A stretch of 59,853 nt of DNA, filler included. It is 8 parts of 8 records of this genome, joined end to end, with 100 filler letters (N's around TTAATTAATTAA, not from the genome) between each part and the next. Parts side by side here need not be neighbours in the genome. Positions count along the whole stretch, not along the records: positions 33,029 to 38,459 come from SRR31156797_26966; 7 more parts are not named here. One strand, given 5' to 3'. The notes under the pieces are model-generated. The model made no database searches and was not told where the DNA came from. It worked only from the letters and a program-made list of their open reading frames with translations. Of the stretch, positions 9,665 through 52,423 are shown in pieces. Numbering within the stretch: position 1 is the first letter of the stretch; every line of letters begins with the position of its first letter. A program made the position numbers and the translations under genes.

Positions 9665-9764
9665 NNNNNNNNNNNNNNNNNNNNNNNNNNNNNNNNNNNN
9701 NNNNNNNNTTAATTAATTAANNNNNNNNNNNNNNNNNNNNNNNNNNNNNNNNNNNNNNNNNNNN
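9665..9764. other. Artificial contig linker
   Basis: N44-TTAATTAATTAA-N44, which gives stops in all six frames. Base composition changes abruptly across it. Confidence 0.98.
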
Positions 9765-16451: not shown

Positions 16452-16551
16452 NNNNNNNNNNNNNNNNNNNNNNNNNNNNNNNNNNNNNNNNNNNNTTAAT
16501 TAATTAANNNNNNNNNNNNNNNNNNNNNNNNNNNNNNNNNNNNNNNNNNNN
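16452..16551. other. Artificial contig linker
   Basis: N44-TTAATTAATTAA-N44. Confidence 0.98.
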
Positions 16552-21875: not shown

Positions 21876-21975
21876 NNNNNNNNNNNNNNNNNNNNNNNNN
21901 NNNNNNNNNNNNNNNNNNNTTAATTAATTAANNNNNNNNNNNNNNNNNNNNNNNNNNNNNNNNNNNNNNNNNNNN
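21876..21975. other. Artificial contig linker
   Basis: N44-TTAATTAATTAA-N44. Confidence 0.98.
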
Positions 21976-32928: not shown

Positions 32929-33028
32929 NNNNNNNNNNNNNNNNNNNNNNNNNNNNNNNNNNNNNNNNNNNNTTAATTAATTAANNNNNNNNNNNNNNNN
33001 NNNNNNNNNNNNNNNNNNNNNNNNNNNN
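32929..33028. other. Artificial contig linker
   Basis: N44-TTAATTAATTAA-N44. Confidence 0.98.
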
Positions 33029-33071
33029 AGCCCGCAATCGCCTACTTTGCATATACTTCCCGTTGGGGTTA
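33029..33071 (+). repeat. 3' end of an attC-like recombination site (R' core GTTGGGGTTA), truncated by contig edge
   Basis: GTTGGGGTTA (33062-33071) is the exact reverse complement of TAACCCCAAC (33982-33991) at the far end of the Rpn gene. Confidence 0.6.
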
Positions 33072-33141
33072 ATGAGGACTTACATCTCCAGAAATTCTAT
33101 TAAATCAAGAAAAATAGTATTTTTGAAAAAATGTTTTTAAG

Positions 33142-33984
33142 ATGGAAGAGTTAAAAGAAAGATATATCAATCCGTTTACTGACTTTGGTTTCAAAAGACT
33201 ATTTGGTGAAGAACCTAATAAGGATTTGTTGATTGATTTTCTAAATGAAATACTAAAACACCAACAAGGTCGAATTGTTGATTTGACTTACTTAAAGACT
33301 GAGCAATTAGGAAAAACAGATATTGATAGAAAGGCAATATTTGACTTGTATTGTGAAAATGAAAAAGGAGAGAAATTTATTGTTGAAATGCAGAAGAGCA
33401 AGCAAAACTTCTTTAAAGATAGAAGCGTATATTATTCAACATTTCCAATTCAAGAGCAAGCTCAGAAATCAGATTGGAATTATGAATTAAAAGCAGTTTA
33501 TACAATTGGAATATTAGATTTTGTGTTTGATTCAGACAAAAATGATTCAAACAAATTTCGATATGATGTAAGACTTCAAGATATTGAGACTAATAAAACG
33601 TTCTACGATAAATTGACTTTTATATACTTTGAAATGCCAAAATTCAATAAGTCAATAGATGAATTGGAGAGTCATTTCGACAAATGGTTATATGTTCTTA
33701 AAAATCTTCATAAACTAGACCGATTACCAGAAAAGTTGAAAGAACAGGTTTTCGAGAAAGTATTTGAAGTTGCTGAGATTGCGAAGTTTTCTCGTGAGGA
33801 ATACATGTCATATGAGGACAGTTTAAAGTATTATCGAGATATTAAAAATTCATTAGATACTGCAAAACTAGAAGCCAAAGAAGAAGTTGTGTTGAATTCA
33901 ATAAAAATGGGGTTAGATTCGGAAACAATTTCAAAAATCACAGGGTTATCTATTGAACAGGTTGAAAGAATAAGAAATTACTAA
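33142..33984 (+). CDS. Rpn family PD-(D/E)XK nuclease (recombination-promoting nuclease/putative transposase)
   Basis: YINPFTDFGFKRLFG, IFDLYC...FIVEMQ, DRSVYY, FEMPKF, C-terminal ISKITGLSIEQV. Confidence 0.92.
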   Translation: MEELKERYINPFTDFGFKRLFGEEPNKDLLIDFLNEILKHQQGRIVDLTYLKTEQLGKTDIDRKAIFDLYCENEKGEKFIVEMQKSKQNFFKDRSVYYSTFPIQEQAQKSDWNYELKAVYTIGILDFVFDSDKNDSNKFRYDVRLQDIETNKTFYDKLTFIYFEMPKFNKSIDELESHFDKWLYVLKNLHKLDRLPEKLKEQVFEKVFEVAEIAKFSREEYMSYEDSLKYYRDIKNSLDTAKLEAKEEVVLNSIKMGLDSETISKITGLSIEQVERIRNY

Positions 33985-34118
33985 CCCCAACAAGCCATTA
34001 TAATGAATTGCGCGTGAGGCTGTTCTACGTTGTGAAATTAAGATGTTAAGCAAATCCAATTAACTTTGTGGGGATTCGGAAAAAGCGCAACTCATCATAT
34101 GGCCGATCCGTTAGCTAC
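33982..34118 (+). repeat. attC-like site (integron-cassette-type hairpin)
   Basis: CCCCAAC directly after the stop codon. Arms GCCATTATAATGAATTGCGC (33994-34013) and GCGCAACTCATCATATGGC (34085-34103) pair with one extra base and two mismatches that become G-T pairs on the bottom strand. Ends in GTTAGCT (34110-34116). Confidence 0.65.
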
Positions 34119-34139
34119 AATCACCCCTATTATTCAGGA

Positions 34140-34375
34140 ACACTTGAGTTTCTAAGCTAACGGGCGTACCTTCACCGTTAGAGCTCCTAGACAAGGCCGG
34201 TTTTTGCAATGGTGTTTAAAGTAACCCGAGCGCAATCAAGGTTAAAATGTAAAAGACATATGTGATCATTTATTTATATGTCTTGGGTTTGAGTTTAATG
34301 GTGTTGCAGTATGTATTTATTGTAAACCCGATCGGAATAATATCAAAGCGTAAGAATACATTTCATGGAGCTTTC
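34140..34375 (+). ncRNA. Candidate IS110 bridge RNA (boundaries approximate)
   Basis: Lies downstream of the junction -10 box. Stems CTAACGG/CCGTTAG, AAGACATAT/ATATGTCTT and AGCTCC/GGAGCT. Duplicated module AATGGTGTT...AACCCGA-N4-AAT whose second copy (TCGGAAT) matches the circle junction. Confidence 0.6.
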
Positions 34376-34397
34376 AAAATTATTTAAATGAGAGGTT

Positions 34398-35753
34398 ATG
34401 AAAAAGAAATGCATGAGTTTAGAGGTTGTAAATCCTAATGCCGCAGGTATTGATATTGGTAGTAAAAGTCATTGGGTTGCAGTAGGGCAAGATTCACAGG
34501 ATGTAAAAGAGTTTGGAGTCTACAGTGAGGATCATCAGGCCTTATGCGAGTATTTGCAAGAGAATCAAGTAACCACAATCGCAATGGAAAGCACCGGAAC
34601 CTATTGGCAAAATCTGTTTTCTTCGTTAGTAGGTTATGGTTTCGATGTTATACTTGTAAATGGCAGACAAACCAAGAATGTTCAAGGTAAGAAGACAGAT
34701 ATTAAAGATTGTCAATGGATCCAAAAACTACACAGTTTAGGATTATTAAGTAAAAGCTTTCTTCCGGATAGTACGACAGACGTTATTCGTACTTATTCAA
34801 GACATCGCCAAAATTTACTTAAACAATCTTCCAGAACAGTATTAAAAGTGCAAAAATATTTACGCTTAATGAATCTACGTTTAGATGTTGTAGTTAAGGA
34901 TGTTGTCGGATTAACAGGGACTAAGATCATAAATGACTTTTTAGGTGGGGAAAGATCAGGAAAGGTCTTGGCTCAGAATAGGCATTATAACTGTCGCAAA
35001 AGTGAAGAAGAAATATCAAAAGCACTTCAGTATAATGGACGAGAAGATTACTTATTTGCATTAAAACATGAATGGCGTACCTACTTGCATTTACAACAAC
35101 AAATAAAAGAAGTAGACACAGAGATAAAAACACTTTTAGAAGATATAATTGATAAGGATGATAATAAGAAACAGCATGTTACTGAAGAAAAGAGTCATAA
35201 AAGAAAAAACAAGAATACGATACATGGCGCAGATATGAACCAATTGGCCTATAAGTATTTTGAAGGGATTGATTTAATGGCAATAGAAGGAGTAAATGAT
35301 GCCACTATAATGGCAATTATCAGTGAGGTAGGGTTAGAGGGAATTCGAAAATTTAGTTCAGCAAAACAGTTTTCCTCCTGGCTTCGCTTAGCTCCCAATA
35401 ATAAAATTAGTGGAGGCAGAGTTTTGAGTCAACATTTGCCCAAGGGAAGTAGTCGTTTAAAAATTGCTTTACGAAATGCAGCCAATGCCATTGGAAACTT
35501 AAAAGAAGGCTATTTAGCCGAATTCTTTCATAAACTAAACTATAAAAAAGGTCGAGCAACAGCAGTAAGTGCAACAGCCAGAAAACTATCCGTTATCATA
35601 TGGAATATGTTAGTAAAGGGCGTTGCCTATAATCCTCCAGTTCAATATTTATACCTAGATCAGAAAAGAAAAATGGGTTTAGTTCATAGAATAAAAAAAC
35701 AAATGAATAAATTTGACATCAACCCAGAAGATTTAGGTTTTTCAAATGCTTGA
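34398..35753 (+). CDS. IS110 family transposase/recombinase (DEDD RuvC-like + Tnp20 domain)
   Basis: AAGIDIGS, AMESTGTYW, KKTDIKDC (DEDD); IEGVN...FSSAKQFSSWLRLAP...ISGG; ATARKL. Confidence 0.95.
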   Translation: MKKKCMSLEVVNPNAAGIDIGSKSHWVAVGQDSQDVKEFGVYSEDHQALCEYLQENQVTTIAMESTGTYWQNLFSSLVGYGFDVILVNGRQTKNVQGKKTDIKDCQWIQKLHSLGLLSKSFLPDSTTDVIRTYSRHRQNLLKQSSRTVLKVQKYLRLMNLRLDVVVKDVVGLTGTKIINDFLGGERSGKVLAQNRHYNCRKSEEEISKALQYNGREDYLFALKHEWRTYLHLQQQIKEVDTEIKTLLEDIIDKDDNKKQHVTEEKSHKRKNKNTIHGADMNQLAYKYFEGIDLMAIEGVNDATIMAIISEVGLEGIRKFSSAKQFSSWLRLAPNNKISGGRVLSQHLPKGSSRLKIALRNAANAIGNLKEGYLAEFFHKLNYKKGRATAVSATARKLSVIIWNMLVKGVAYNPPVQYLYLDQKRKMGLVHRIKKQMNKFDINPEDLGFSNA

Positions 35754-35940
35754 TAATCTGAATTATGGGTTTGACGTTAGTCGGAAGGCAAGATGAGCAG
35801 CTTGGTTAATATAAGATGAATTACAATTTGAAAAATAGGATTGAAAATATAGGCTTATTGATTGAAGGTTGGTGCAAGAAAAAAATAGTTTTTGCCACCG
35901 CGCTTCTGCCCTTCGGGACAGTTGGGGTAGCCAACTCACA

Positions 35941-36001
35941 TTGCACACATTTGCAAATCGCATCAGCTGACACACAAACCGAAATTTGCAAAAGAGTGCA
36001 A
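35941..36001. repeat. Imperfect inverted repeat upstream of the phosphoesterase gene
   Basis: TTGCACACATTTGCAAAT ... ATTTGCAAAAGAGTGCAA, 16/18 complementary. Confidence 0.6.
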
Positions 36002-36030
36002 TCTTTGCCGACGCTCAAAAAACTGCATAC

Positions 36031-36695: not shown

Positions 36696-36731
36696 TATAT
36701 TTGATTATTCTTAATTCGCGAATCGCGAATT
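36696..36731 (+). promoter_or_regulatory. Bacteroidota -7 promoter box plus palindromic operator
   Basis: TATATTTG (TAnnTTTG, 36696-36703) followed by the perfect inverted repeat AATTCGCGA-A-TCGCGAATT (36713-36731), 13 nt before the ATG. Confidence 0.65.
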
Positions 36732-36744
36732 GAAAACAAAAGAT

Positions 36745-37266
36745 ATGAAAAAGCATAATGGGATGCGCCCCCAAGACATAGTTGTTTTACTAAAAATCAT
36801 AGCCTTAAAGCATGATGATTGGTATAACTCTGATTTAGCACAATCATTAAAAATCAGTCCATCTGAAATATCCGAAGTATTGAATAGGTGTAAAATTGCA
36901 GGCTTAATAGATTCAAAAAAACGTAAGGTTAATATTAATTCCTTTATGGAATTTTTAATCTACGGTTTAAAATATGTGTTCCCTACTCAGCCAGGTGCTA
37001 TAGTAAAAGGAATTCCTACAGCGCATTCGGCATCACCGATTAAGGAGCATATTTCAAGTGGTTCAGATATTTATGTTTGGTCAAGTGCCAAAGGAACTCA
37101 ACGTGGACAATCAATAGAACCTCTTTTTAAATCAATTCCTCAGATTGTACAAGATGACATATTATTCTATGAGTTACTGGCTATTGTTGACACAATACGG
37201 GTTGGACGAGTTAGAGAAATAAACATAGCTAAAACAGAACTGGAAAAACGATTAAAGCATGCTTAG
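36745..37266 (+). CDS. Winged-HTH protein, putative AbiEi-like antitoxin
   Basis: MRPQDIVVLLK...DLAQSLKISPSEISEVLNRC..AGLI (HTH). Stop overlaps the nucleotidyltransferase start. Confidence 0.65.
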   Translation: MKKHNGMRPQDIVVLLKIIALKHDDWYNSDLAQSLKISPSEISEVLNRCKIAGLIDSKKRKVNINSFMEFLIYGLKYVFPTQPGAIVKGIPTAHSASPIKEHISSGSDIYVWSSAKGTQRGQSIEPLFKSIPQIVQDDILFYELLAIVDTIRVGRVREINIAKTELEKRLKHA

Positions 37267-37951
37267 TACAAATATTGAAATGCTACAGACAGTAGCAAAC
37301 GGGTTAGGAGTTTTAAAAGATGATATGGTATTTGTTGGCGGTGCAGTAGCTGAATTGTATGCGAGTAATCCTGAATTATCTGATATAAGACCAACGCTTG
37401 ATGTGGATTGCGTTATTGAATTGCGTTCAAAAACAGCACATGTCAAATTAGAAGAAGACTTAAGAGCTTTAGGGTTTGCTAATGACACCTCAAAAGGAGC
37501 TCCTATTTGCAGGTGGATTTATCAGGATATTATGGTAGATGTAATGCCTTCTGATTCTGATATATTGGGATTTAGCAATAAGTGGTATGATGAAGGAATT
37601 GAAAAGAAGATTTCAAAAACTCTTCCAAATGGAACTGAGGTATTCGTATTTACACCAGAATATTATTTAGCAGCAAAGTTTGAAGCTCATAAAGGGCGTG
37701 GTGGAAATGATTTAAGGCAAAGCCACGATTTTGAGGATATCATTTTCATACTAGATAATTGTTCCGAAATTCTGGATAATATTTCAAACGCAAATGAGTC
37801 TGTGAAAACATATTTAAAAGAGGAATGTAGTAATTTATTGAAAAATGATGGAATAACAGAAGGAATTGAAAGTGCTTTGACCTATGGTTCAGAAGAAGAA
37901 GCTACTGAAATAATTATTGAATTAATCCAAAGTATAGCTGATATTGAATAA
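37259..37951 (+). CDS. Putative nucleotidyltransferase toxin, AbiEii-like
   Basis: VFVGGAV...RPTLDVD...VDVMP...KFEA...R...SHDFEDI, the Pol-beta-like NTase motif order of AbiEii/MenT-type proteins. Confidence 0.7.
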   Translation: MLSTNIEMLQTVANGLGVLKDDMVFVGGAVAELYASNPELSDIRPTLDVDCVIELRSKTAHVKLEEDLRALGFANDTSKGAPICRWIYQDIMVDVMPSDSDILGFSNKWYDEGIEKKISKTLPNGTEVFVFTPEYYLAAKFEAHKGRGGNDLRQSHDFEDIIFILDNCSEILDNISNANESVKTYLKEECSNLLKNDGITEGIESALTYGSEEEATEIIIELIQSIADIE

Positions 37952-38445
37952 TGAATAAAGGTAAACAAACATATAAATTACCTAAGGGGTGGATATTTGT
38001 TACGCTTGAAGATGTGTCAAAACAAATTACTGATGGTTCTCATAACCCTCCTAAATCAGTAGATTCAGGCATACCTATGCTAAGTGCACGAAATATTGAA
38101 GATAGTAATATTGCTTTTGATGATGTGCGCTATTTAACAACTGAAGATTTTGCTTATGAAAATCAAAGGACGAAAATTGAACATGGAGATGTATTACTTA
38201 CAATAGTAGCAACAATAGGTCGCACAGCTGTTGTATCAAAGAATATTAATCCAAAATTTGCATTGCAAAGAAGTGTTGCTGTCATTAAACCATTAATAAA
38301 CAGTGAGTTTTTAATGTATTGCTTCCAATCTCCACGATTTCAGAAAAAACTAATAGAGAATGCAAAAGGCACAGCTCAAAAAGGAGTTTATCTAAAAACA
38401 CTGCGGAACCTCGAAATTCCAATTGCGCCCAAACCCTTTGGTTAA
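37951..38445 (+). CDS. hsdS: Type I restriction-modification specificity subunit, N-terminal TRD only (truncated near contig end)
   Basis: LPKGWIFVTLEDV, ITDGSHNPP, GDVLLTIVATIGR, GTAQKGV.LK.L..LEIPIAP. Confidence 0.85.
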   Translation: MNKGKQTYKLPKGWIFVTLEDVSKQITDGSHNPPKSVDSGIPMLSARNIEDSNIAFDDVRYLTTEDFAYENQRTKIEHGDVLLTIVATIGRTAVVSKNINPKFALQRSVAVIKPLINSEFLMYCFQSPRFQKKLIENAKGTAQKGVYLKTLRNLEIPIAPKPFG

Positions 38446-38459
38446 TCGGGTGCCCTTTG

Positions 38460-38559
38460 NNNNNNNNNNNNNNNNNNNNNNNNNNNNNNNNNNNNNNNNN
38501 NNNTTAATTAATTAANNNNNNNNNNNNNNNNNNNNNNNNNNNNNNNNNNNNNNNNNNNN
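38460..38559. other. Artificial contig linker
   Basis: N44-TTAATTAATTAA-N44. Confidence 0.98.
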
Positions 38560-44129: not shown

Positions 44130-44229
44130 NNNNNNNNNNNNNNNNNNNNNNNNNNNNNNNNNNNNNNNNNNNNTTAATTAATTAANNNNNNNNNNNNNNN
44201 NNNNNNNNNNNNNNNNNNNNNNNNNNNNN
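44130..44229. other. Artificial contig linker
   Basis: N44-TTAATTAATTAA-N44. Confidence 0.98.
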
Positions 44230-52323: not shown

Positions 52324-52423
52324 NNNNNNNNNNNNNNNNNNNNNNNNNNNNNNNNNNNNNNNNNNNNTTAATTAATTAANNNNNNNNNNNNNNNNNNNNN
52401 NNNNNNNNNNNNNNNNNNNNNNN
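52324..52423. other. Artificial contig linker
   Basis: N44-TTAATTAATTAA-N44. Confidence 0.98.

Follow-up and report, generated by a model that had tools for sequence, protein, structure and literature searches.

An apparently intact IS110-family element with a structured bridge-type RNA beside an attC-like site

The insertion and its surroundings

The window, meaning the whole stretch of DNA that was analysed (59,853 nucleotides, eight parts joined end to end), contains the element on a 5.4 kb contig that begins at position 33029. All features mentioned below are on the plus strand. The contig starts inside an attC-like site, so that only the 3' half with its CCGTTGGGGTTAAT end is present (33029-33075, motif at 33062), and this half resembles the attC-like flank of one of the relatives of the element (L069). 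Other contigs of the probable source run match this upstream site up to 33065 and then diverge. The site is followed by a cassette ORF of 280 codons (33142-33984), annotated as an Rpn-family nuclease / putative transposase (NCBIfam TIGR01784, 100.3 bits versus a cut-off of 52.1), which lies between this site and a second attC-like site at the element (33981-34118). These are the only two attC-like sites of the contig, which is without an integrase. The second site, delimited by sequence and a constrained fold, begins with CTAAC (33981-33985), overlapping the stop codon of the cassette ORF, carries GTTAG at 34110-34114, and has imperfect inverted arms at approximately 33994-34013 and 34086-34105, while its fold is weak (-7.4 kcal/mol, z about 0 to -0.8). 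On the other side of the element, the start of the next cassette (35787-36030) provides the right target flank, GGCAAG and onwards, and a segment of this cassette start (35852-36002) is repeated elsewhere in the sample.

The element encodes a DEDD transposase of 451 amino acids (34398-35753), which matched PF01548 (84.1 bits, cut-off 29, E = 1.2e-23), PF02371 (42.3 bits, cut-off 21.3, E = 9.9e-11) and NF033542 (217.2 bits, cut-off 140), all above their cut-offs, and by these matches the ORF product is an IS110-family RNA-guided transposase, as had been predicted originally. In the translation, D19, E64, D101 and D104 are candidates for the catalytic D-E-D-D and occur in GIDIG, MEST and TDIKD contexts, and S338, a candidate for the serine of the Tnp domain, aligns with the serine of the ESG motif of ISCro4, in what is only a partial alignment.

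The motif-bearing left junction reads CCGTTAGCTAC-AA-TCACCCC (34108-34127) and the right junction ACGTTAGTCGG-AA-GGCAAG (35774-35792), with 8 of 12 bases in common. Two copies of an AA core dinucleotide, placed by the window sequence together with the junctions of relatives, are located at 34119-34120 and 35785-35786. Between them lie a non-coding left end of 277 nt (34121-34397), with the -10-like hexamer TATTAT at 34128-34133, the transposase gene, and a short right end (35754-35784) that contains the -35-like hexamer TTGACG (35771-35776) and CGTTAGTCGG (35775-35784). With the core counted once, the element comprises 34121-35786, i.e. 1666 bp (~1.67 kb). The junction strings and both hexamers were all found where the original prediction had put them; its range of 34109-35790 includes flank bases and had to be trimmed to the ends fixed by the relatives. 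Measured from the G|TT within GTTAGCT (34110-34116), the element was inserted 10 nt further 3', in agreement with the predicted position of about 10 nt past the G/TT crossover. Since CGTTAG-N4-AA is not rare in the window (3 occurrences, a count also reached by 20 of 100 shuffles, versus an expectation of 1.5), the window alone proves nothing.

Target motif, hairpins and cassette arrays

The ends could be placed on both sides in 59 of 80 fetched relative loci, in addition to the window, and the remaining 21 loci were excluded from every count. In four genomes with multiple copies, the sequences of these copies cease to match one another precisely at two points, to the left of AA-TCC... and to the right of ...GTCGG-AA. 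Among the 50 distinct left flanks of relatives, 48 have CGTT at positions -10 to -7, 47 have A or G at -6, and 39 have C at -1; after CGTT, most have GC at -2/-1 and then AA. AA is present at the left junction in 46 of these flanks, in line with the prediction of an AA core, unlike the CT core of IS621. The target of the family, (C/A)CGTT(A/G)-N3-GC-AA, falls within the local attC consensus, and the orientation of insertion relative to the palindrome is identical in all. It is the relatives that establish where the element ends, its core, its single orientation and its target motif. Across approximately 50 independent insertions these points held up, and so did the proposal that the donor end mimics the target, CGTTAG being common to both. 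There are no terminal inverted repeats, and the window, the relatives and the insertion in L008 all show a simple insertion with a short core, without a longer duplication.

The latter relative, L008, cleanly splits a GH36-like coding sequence that carries CCGTTAnnnnCAA, and when set against intact homologues of 747 aa its two flanks join up at 498|499; there is no palindrome at this position. This bears on the question of what is recognised. If, in the manner of integron integrases and group IIC-attC introns, the element recognised the folded single-stranded attC hairpin and not a duplex sequence read by RNA, this would fit the many insertions at the 3' foot of ~125-nt palindromes and the single orientation relative to the palindrome throughout. 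However, in addition to the case of L008, a hairpin with z below -2 was found in only 12 of 42 flanks compared to 8 of 50 control CGTTR sites, some of which are vacant array sites, so that targets were not separated from controls, and an earlier set of z-scores (12 of 31) likewise gave no separation. Moreover, some copies adjoin right-end-like sequences or mini-elements, and the target motif is kept even at insertions without a hairpin. Recognition of the fold is therefore very unlikely in our view. Because of the insertion in the GH36-like gene and the many flanks without a hairpin, we conclude that the element follows a sequence motif and not the attC fold. The attC-like nature of the cassette site was upheld, and it is the predicted specialisation on this site that has to be reworded accordingly, as one for sequence.

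In two genomes of relatives the sites form arrays. The first (G001) contains 17 same-strand palindromes of ~125 nt, 2 of which are occupied, the second (G004) ~15-17, with 1 occupied, and both arrays are located beside a TIGR02249-like recombinase gene, from which they begin at most ~1.2 kb away. The sites are spaced 0.6-2.9 kb apart with mostly single ORFs in between. Compared with the inverse core RYYYAAC and core GTTRRRY of integron attC sites, they begin and end as AAC...GTT, with arms that are imperfect and a spacer that is unpaired, and of the GTTRRRY box only GTTR is conserved. For an nhmmer profile derived from 29 array sites in these two relatives, the loci contained 43 matches and the window had no match, and an energy scan of high-GC contigs was uninformative. 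The array-linked recombinase scored 212.7 bits with TIGR02249, below the integron-integrase cut-off of 265, it is without the IntI-specific insert (14 residues versus 56 at VchIntIA 186-241, ~42 fewer), and its best solved relative is archaeal XerA. We regard the arrays as integron-like, with an Xer-like recombinase beside them.

The same features leave room for a different reading, in which the repeats are a lineage-specific REP-like or terminator-like family, served, if at all, by an Xer-type recombinase, and the element is a REP-targeting IS110 like IS621 or ISPpu10. The sub-threshold score, the proximity to archaeal XerA, the missing VchIntIA 186-241 stretch and the conservation of no more than GTTR would all suit this reading. 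Against it stand the same-strand arrangement, with the above spacing, intervening ORFs and a nearby recombinase in two genomes, the AAC...GTT ends with unpaired spacer and imperfect arms, and the fact that integrons have been reported in Bacteroidota, as far as the available part of that report goes (PMC8618304). We regard it as unlikely, but worth keeping in mind. If the sites are indeed attC-like, the element is relevant for integron biology, as it targets the cassette side of such sites in Bacteroidota arrays and leaves the hairpin undamaged: joint movement with the cassette that follows would be possible, and outward-facing ends could alter the expression of downstream cassettes. The arrays beside a recombinase without the IntI insert are noteworthy in their own right.

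The left-end RNA and its guide segments

The long left end encodes a bridge-like RNA. An alignment of 31 left-end sequences (A2) gave a consensus fold of 27 pairs in 5 helices, which are paired in 97.6% of cases, versus 83.1% in shuffles and 26-48% with slid partners. Compensatory changes occur in 16 of the 27 pairs, the covariation score is 0.499 versus 0.206, and none of 500 shuffles reached the score of the fold. The G-U pairs in helix H2 fit transcription of the plus strand. These data demonstrate the RNA fold, with two internal loops in the long left end. A search of Rfam 15 gave no matches at the gathering score, and none up to E = 10. Upstream of the loops is GCTAACG (34156-34162), which is nearly invariant in A2. 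The right end and the targets carry its reverse complement, CGTTAGC, and GCTAACG is a candidate for an arm of a 7-bp subterminal inverted repeat or for an RNA anchor. It is complementary to the donor positions in all variants and retained in both mini-elements (2/2).

Loop 2 (34245-34363), the putative donor-binding loop, was delimited by the fold and pair counts and consists of H4 (34245-34250 / 34358-34363), H5 (34300-34329) and the donor guide TCGGAAT (34332-34338), which equals the right-end bases. As RNA, this UCGGAAU corresponds in sense to the final four bases of the right end together with the core, and at the two right-end bases that vary it is identical in 31 of 31 and 48 of 48 variants, with six tetramer states. 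This correspondence also bears on the possibility that the common CGTTAG-N4-AA is a target-site duplication, or that the boundary was misplaced and the element ends before CGTTAG, as might be suspected from the 8 of 12 bases that both window junctions have in common. The right-side tetramer is constant (TCGG and variants) and covaries with the RNA of the element in 48 of 48, whereas the four bases on the left side vary among copies within one genome. A target-site duplication was rejected on this ground, and hardly any probability remains for this alternative as a whole.

Loop 1 (34195-34243), delimited in the same way, is the putative target-binding loop, with H2 (34195-34198 / 34240-34243), a 5' side (34199-34209), H3 (34210-34228) and a 3' side that includes GCGCAATC (34230-34237), which tracks left-end positions +1/+2 in 33 of 33 variants. 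The loop-1 segment GCGCAAUC has the same sense as the junction of target-left, core and left end, and its identity at left-end base +2 holds in 33 of 33 variants, a count behind which there are only about two independent TC-to-TT changes. The covariation of the loop guides with the target amounts to a weak excess over permuted pairs: own targets fit the two loop-1 sides slightly better than permuted ones (3.86 versus 3.47, 1/3000; 2.20 versus 2.06, 21/3000). For the window copy itself, the agreement between its target and its loop guides is poor, with matches at 1 of 4 and 4 of 9 positions. An RNA segment pairing with the left end beyond +2/+3 was not found, only clade-level signals, and opposite the core the 5' side of loop 1 has AA and not UU. 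Both sense-strand guide segments (34230-34237 and 34332-34338) lie 3' of the loop hairpins.

The locus thus harbours an apparently intact IS110-family insertion sequence with a structured bridge-type RNA upstream of the recombinase. We are confident, though not certain, that such an intact element with its bridge-type RNA was inserted here conservatively, at an AA core 10 nt past the attC-like G|TT. Since this G|TT belongs to the R' end of the cassette site, recombination there would leave the attC-like hairpin whole and make the element the first part of the next cassette. The guide segments would pair with the bottom strands, comparable to the left guides of IS621, and the CGTTAG that is invariant in donor and target may be read by a fixed part of the complex. 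Candidates for reading this anchor are the recombinase, acting on the 7-bp inverted repeat CGTTAG/CTAACG, and the GCUAACG of the RNA.

Candidate circle promoter and relation to known systems

In the proposed cycle, the excised circle would join TTGACG to TATTAT and thereby drive the RNA. The empty allele and the circle junction expected from the original prediction were not found for this copy. The contigs of the probable source run, the one DNA run in which the locus is present, show only its occupied form, without any joint across 34120/35787 or back-joint; a sister run was identified as well, and no RNA run containing the locus was found. For the empty allele, words of 22 nt from the left flank and 24 nt from the right flank had 0 matches each in metagenome contigs. 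Indirect evidence for circles comes from two relatives (L038 and L054), in which junctions of right end, AA and left end adjoin mini-elements, and these junctions also agree with the ends and the core given above. Circularised ends would bring TTGACG and TATTAT 17 nt apart (10 nt of the right end and 7 nt of the left end), which confirms the geometry that had been claimed. Purely as a sequence match, this candidate junction promoter agrees with the sigma-70 consensus at 5 of 6 positions in both hexamers, the best sigma-70-type match in the element family. The housekeeping promoters of Bacteroidota differ from the sigma-70 consensus, and the claimed resemblance to a Bacteroidota-type promoter turned out weak, at most 4-5 of 6.

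It is quite conceivable, at somewhat below even chances, that the circle junction does not drive the RNA in the host and that another promoter or read-through from the cassette array does so instead. TTGACG would then be conserved because it overlaps the ACGTTAG anchor, and indeed distant members retain ACGTTAG but have a -35 that has decayed to AAAACG, TTTACG and similar sequences. A score of at least 4 of 6 in both hexamers is reached by only 12 of 42 distinct junctions, and the low Bacteroidota-type match points the same way. On the other hand, most members have a hexamer starting with TA at a fixed spacing of 16-17 nt, the window junction scores high in both hexamers, and the available parts of the literature document junction promoters for IS621 (PMC11208160, PMC11208158) and for ISEc11 and ISEc21 (PMC11187229).

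What differs from known bridge systems is the guide order, opposite to that of IS621, and the 7-bp anchor common to donor and target. In the portions of the IS621 and ISCro4 reports that were available (PMC11208160, PMC11208158), these elements resemble ours in their DEDD recombinase, which carries a Tnp domain at its C-terminus, in the contrast between a short right end and a long left end specifying an RNA of two loops, in a 2-nt core that is not accompanied by a duplication, in the covariation of guides with the donor end, and in a -35/-10 pair split across the ends. However, their proteins are very distant (only residues 293-412 align, E ~1e-5) and shorter (~326-341 aa versus 451 aa). In addition, the top-strand-sense guides are on the 3' side of each loop here and, in the same accounts, on the 5' side in IS621, and the donor guide of our element is only 4 bases plus the core. 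Because this geometry and these guide lengths are unlike IS621, the family provides a test of the generality of the IS621 model with respect to guide order, core pairing and handshake bases. With 33 RNA variants and ~50 target sites it is a well-sampled natural family for bridge-recombinase work, which also tests how a fixed anchor combines with programmable bases.

Instead of the 2-3 bp repeats given for the IS110 group in the descriptions at hand, the element has the candidate 7-bp CGTTAG/CTAACG repeat, for which a comparison is offered by the IS1111-attC group (ISKpn4, ISPst6, ISPa21), members of the IS110 superfamily with Proteobacteria as hosts. The accessible text on that group (PMC11187229) describes insertion in one orientation at one end of attC sites, a top-strand guide before the bottom-strand guide, as in IS1111 seekRNAs, and subterminal inverted repeats of at least 7 bp (range in IS1111 7-17 bp). 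The single orientation and, apparently, the guide order are alike in our element, and its 7-bp pair is a candidate for such repeats. By contrast, the RNA and non-coding region of that group are downstream of the transposase according to this text, whereas here they are upstream, with 277 nt before the start codon and only 33 nt after the stop codon (35754-35786, core included). The repeats of the IS1111-attC group are positioned 7 and 3 bp from the ends, whereas in the pair ACGTTAG / CTAACG(T) of our element the left arm lies ~37 nt inside and not ~7 nt. The same source describes for ISEc21 a short RNA that originates in a non-coding region upstream and matches a linear sequence target on both strands, as here, and circles with a junction promoter, for which the counterpart here is a candidate only; in ISEc21 the bottom-strand match is 5' of the top-strand match, an order that is apparently opposite in our element.

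Like the REP-targeting IS110 elements, as far as they are covered by the available material (IS621 in E. coli REPs; ISPpu10, bioRxiv 10.64898/2026.03.19.712850), the element targets an intergenic palindrome that is present many times, and thereby has numerous near-identical safe sites at its disposal. In our case, by contrast, the repeats are cassette boundaries in arrays beside a tyrosine recombinase, which places the element within a cassette that is potentially mobile. The group IIC-attC introns are likewise a class of mobile elements specialised on attC sites, but in the part of the report available (PMC3001079) they are retroelements that read the folded strand, and their chemistry and recognition are therefore unrelated to those of the element.

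The Bacteroidota-wide lineage could be a hybrid of both known branches of RNA-guided DEDD elements, with its RNA upstream as in IS110, its guides in the order of IS1111 (top-strand before bottom-strand), a 7-bp subterminal repeat that doubles as the invariant half of the target, very short guides of 4 bases plus the core, its own right end as a target, and, as its home, cassette arrays served by Xer-like recombinases without the IntI insert. We put this forward tentatively, as a proposal that is rather more likely to fail in some part than to hold as a whole. If it is true, recognition would be split between a hard-wired anchor and programmable guides. The use of its own right end as a target would explain tandem mini-elements.

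The element, its ends and the AA core

The IS110-family insertion occupies positions 34121-35786 (1666 bp, + strand), on a contig at 33029-38459 (5,431 bases, G+C 0.34). The window holds eight contigs with G+C values of 0.31-0.61, concatenated by N44-TTAATTAATTAA-N44 linkers (9665-9764, 16452-16551, 21876-21975, 32929-33028, 38460-38559, 44130-44229, and 52324-52423), thus adjacency across the linkers is meaningless and nothing beyond this contig counts as a neighbor of the element. The window is probably a mixed bin. The ORF at 34398-35753 encodes a 451-aa protein that matches PF01548 and PF02371 and scores 217 bits against the NCBIfam model 'IS110 family RNA-guided transposase' (cut-off 140). 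All strings quoted in the original prediction were found at their positions in the window. The motif CGTTAG-N4-AA occurs three times in the window against 1.5 expected, which is not significant alone, therefore the test had to rest on relatives. Scanning one genome from each species gave 213 stretches encoding relatives, of which the best 80 were kept, with 60-82% identity and almost all from Bacteroidota. Both ends could be placed in 59 of these 80 loci and in the window, and the remaining 21 loci were excluded from every count.

In four multi-copy genomes, the copies have one and the same sequence between AA-TCC... and ...GTCGG-AA, and their flanks are unrelated. When the flanks of the relatives were aligned, as the original prediction had proposed, CGTT was present at -10 to -7 in 48 of the 50 distinct left flanks, with A or G at -6 (47/50), G at -2 (36/50), and C at -1 (39/50). 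The left junction dinucleotide was AA in 46 of these flanks, TA in two, and CA in two, and the right end across the family reads ACGTTAGT(C/T/A)(G/A)(G/T)-AA. The target departs from the donor at -1 (C versus G) and at +1, which delimits the exchanged core to exactly AA, as had been predicted. The copy at locus L008 splits a GH36-like (alpha-galactosidase-type) gene, the pieces of which lie at L008:1209-2729 and from L008:4388 onward. Relative to an intact homologue of 747 aa (80% identity), the left piece stops with residue 498 and the right one resumes with 499; this continuity was also seen against two more distant homologues, and beyond AA there was neither loss nor duplication. The same genome carries an intact paralogue of the split gene, 79% identical, about 20 kb away. 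Loci L003 and L004, both on MAG contigs, have an identical left flank and element and different right flanks, a pattern compatible with an exchange of cassettes or with copies recombining with each other.

Joining the ends in the window gives TTGACG-17-TATTAT, with five of six matches in each hexamer, the best of 42 distinct family junctions. At least 5/6 matches in the -35 were found in 23 of the 42 junctions, and at least 4/6 in both hexamers in 12. The -35 shares bases with the conserved ACGTTAG, and in distant members the -35 decays while ACGTTAG is kept. The junction was a poor fit to the Bacteroidota-type promoter motif, the geometry of which had also been invoked in the original prediction. 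As a sequence match, the junction is a plausible candidate promoter.

A putative guide RNA and the CGTTAG anchor

An RNAalifold consensus from 31 left ends, which aligned well, contained five helices. Paired cells made up 97.6% of the alignment, compared to 83.1% when shuffled and 26-48% with slid partners, two-sided changes occurred in 16 of 27 pairs, and the covariation score was 0.499 versus 0.206. The G-U pairs in helix 2 agree with transcription of the + strand, and Rfam held no counterpart of this RNA. The fold has two internal-loop modules, a putative target-binding loop 1 (34195-34243) and a putative donor-binding loop 2 (34245-34363). The 3' side of loop 2 holds the donor guide, TCGGAAT (34332-34338), which reads in the same sense as the final four bases of the right end together with the core. 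The right-end tetramer has six forms in the family (TCGG, TTGG, TAGG, TCAG, TTAG, and TCAT), and the loop 2 RNA tracks it in all 31 aligned left ends and in 48/48 variants.

In loop 1, the 3' side carries GCGCAATC at 34230-34237, which reads as target positions -4 to -1, the core, and the first left-end bases. The base after AAT was C in all 28 variants with a left end TC and T in all five with TT, although this 33/33 covariation represents about two independent changes. The four bases before the loop 1 core match the target exactly in L015, L041, L054/L055, L056, and L070, and the unusual CA left junction of L056 is mirrored in its RNA. There was a weak excess in the fit of the loop 1 segment to its own target (2.20 of 4 versus 2.06 permuted; 21 of 3000 permutations), and likewise in that of the reverse complement of the loop 1 5' side to the right flank (3.86 of 9 versus 3.47; 1 of 3000). 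A search across variants found no RNA segment pairing with the left end past +2/+3, and the 5' side of loop 1 carries AA where core pairing would need UU.

Neither loop covers CGTT(A/G) at -10 to -6, where the target logo is strongest. CGTTAG is also present in the right end of the element, in the same register as in the target, and the left end contains its nearly invariant reverse complement as GCTAACG (34156-34162). Two mini-elements of about 90-105 bp (L038:2633-2740 and L054:2886-2995; L055 has the identical sequence) retain three parts alone, namely the start of the left end, G(C/A)TAACG, and the right end, which makes a cis role for CGTTAG/CTAACG, as a subterminal inverted repeat, probable. 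Both the protein and the GCUAACG of the RNA are candidates for its reader. The mini-elements lie head-to-tail with full copies, sharing a single AA, indicating that the right end can itself be used as a target; right-end-like sequences also adjoin copies in L002, L016, and L045.

The attC-like site and integron-like arrays of relatives

The contig begins partway through the 3' half of an attC-like site (33029-33075), and a further site extends from CTAAC (33981-33985), within which the upstream ORF has part of its stop codon, to GTTAG (34110-34114), with imperfect inverted arms in between. These sites bracket a 280-aa Rpn-family ORF, which is therefore a cassette, 1,048 bp from GTT to GTT. Other contigs in the sole run containing this contig match the first site through 33065 and then diverge. 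As the original prediction had it, the insertion point is 10 nt beyond G|TT; this places it with the next cassette and leaves the hairpin and the GTTAGCT box intact. Should the local recombinase use G|TT as its cutting site, the element would move together with the downstream genes as one cassette. Downstream, a 150-nt repeat with a GC-rich hairpin (35852-36002), including a 19-nt inverted repeat (35940-35958/35984-36002), had no Rfam match and is common to other contigs of the sample, which diverge on both sides. Beyond a phosphoesterase-like gene, overlapping ORFs (36730-37951 and 37951-38445) comprise, in order, a weak HTH match, a 230-aa ORF without family, and a type I restriction S-subunit fragment running to the contig end; they look like a defense-type cluster, with no attC-like site between them.

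Two genomes of relatives contain arrays of same-strand AAC...GTT palindromes, G001 with 17 of about 125 nt each, spaced 0.6-2.9 kb, and G004 with about 15-17. In both, the array starts at most about 1.2 kb from a co-oriented tyrosine recombinase gene, and elements occupy two sites in G001 and one in G004. Array sites are near-identical within one genome, and vacant ones mostly read GTTRnnnn(C/T)AAT, thus the AA core belongs to the site consensus. The hairpin in the window was weak in energy (z about 0), z-scores did not separate targets from controls, and a profile of the G001 and G004 array sites gave no match in the window. The array recombinase scored 212.7 bits against an integron-integrase cut-off of 265, has 14 residues where VchIntIA has 56, and lacks the IntI-specific insert. 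For these reasons we term the sites attC-like and the arrays integron-like. Judging from the copy in the GH36-like gene of L008, the element follows sequence, not fold. Array-head tyrosine recombinases were located at L089:1915-3300, G004:C1:4171112-4171912, and G001:C4:1523479-1524069. The array recombinase is Xer-like, with archaeal XerA as its best solved relative, and is without about 42 residues at the extra domain of VchIntIA; that of genome G005 has an N-terminal extension of 185 aa. Integrons have been reported in Bacteroidota (PMC8618304).

Relation to known IS110 and IS1111 elements

RNA guidance in IS110/IS1111 elements is known (PMC11208160, PMC11208158, and PMC11187229), as are the circles that they form and the promoters at the circle junctions. 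Homing of IS110 elements to REP repeats is known from the bridge-RNA literature, and homing of IS1111-group elements to one attC end from PMC11187229. As described in parts of PMC11208160 and PMC11208158, the top-strand-sense guides of IS621 (LTG and LDG) are located 5' of the loop hairpins, and its 3' guides have two 'handshake' bases for the other DNA. Here, in contrast, the two sense-strand segments come 3' of the hairpins, and after each there are bases fitting the partner DNA. Siddiquee et al. (PMC11187229) report that in IS1111 seekRNAs the complement of the top strand precedes the match to the bottom strand, and that ISEc21, an IS110-type element, has the opposite order; on that account, the order found here is like IS1111 and opposite to ISEc21. 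The end layout, a long left end and a right end of 33 nt, is like IS110, whereas the 7-bp CGTTAG/CTAACG repeat is IS1111-like in length, the repeats of the IS110 group being only 2-3 bp in the passages of Durrant et al. that treat them. The observation behind the original prediction is confirmed, and its interpretation is supported with qualifications on fold, promoter, and array recombinase. In the literature searched, we found no description of a family with IS110 layout on Bacteroidota cassette sites, although supplements may list orthologues; from 2024 on, 'bridge RNA' together with attC retrieved only Durrant et al., with attC just in the reference list. The family is of interest for its inverted guide order, for an anchor common to donor and target, for its mini-elements, and for the unusual array-side recombinase.

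The 451-aa protein is distant from IS621 and ISCro4 (a 120-residue match at E about 1e-5), and has relatives of 57% identity in Pontibacter and of 38% on enterobacterial plasmids. One of the latter, L096 (Enterobacter plasmid NZ_CP042553.1, 109780-111120), is an IS110-family transposase with an upstream gap of 840 nt, and among relatives from cultured hosts it may be the closest one for experimental work. Its gene has an IS66 element as neighbor, on IncF plasmids from several Enterobacterales.
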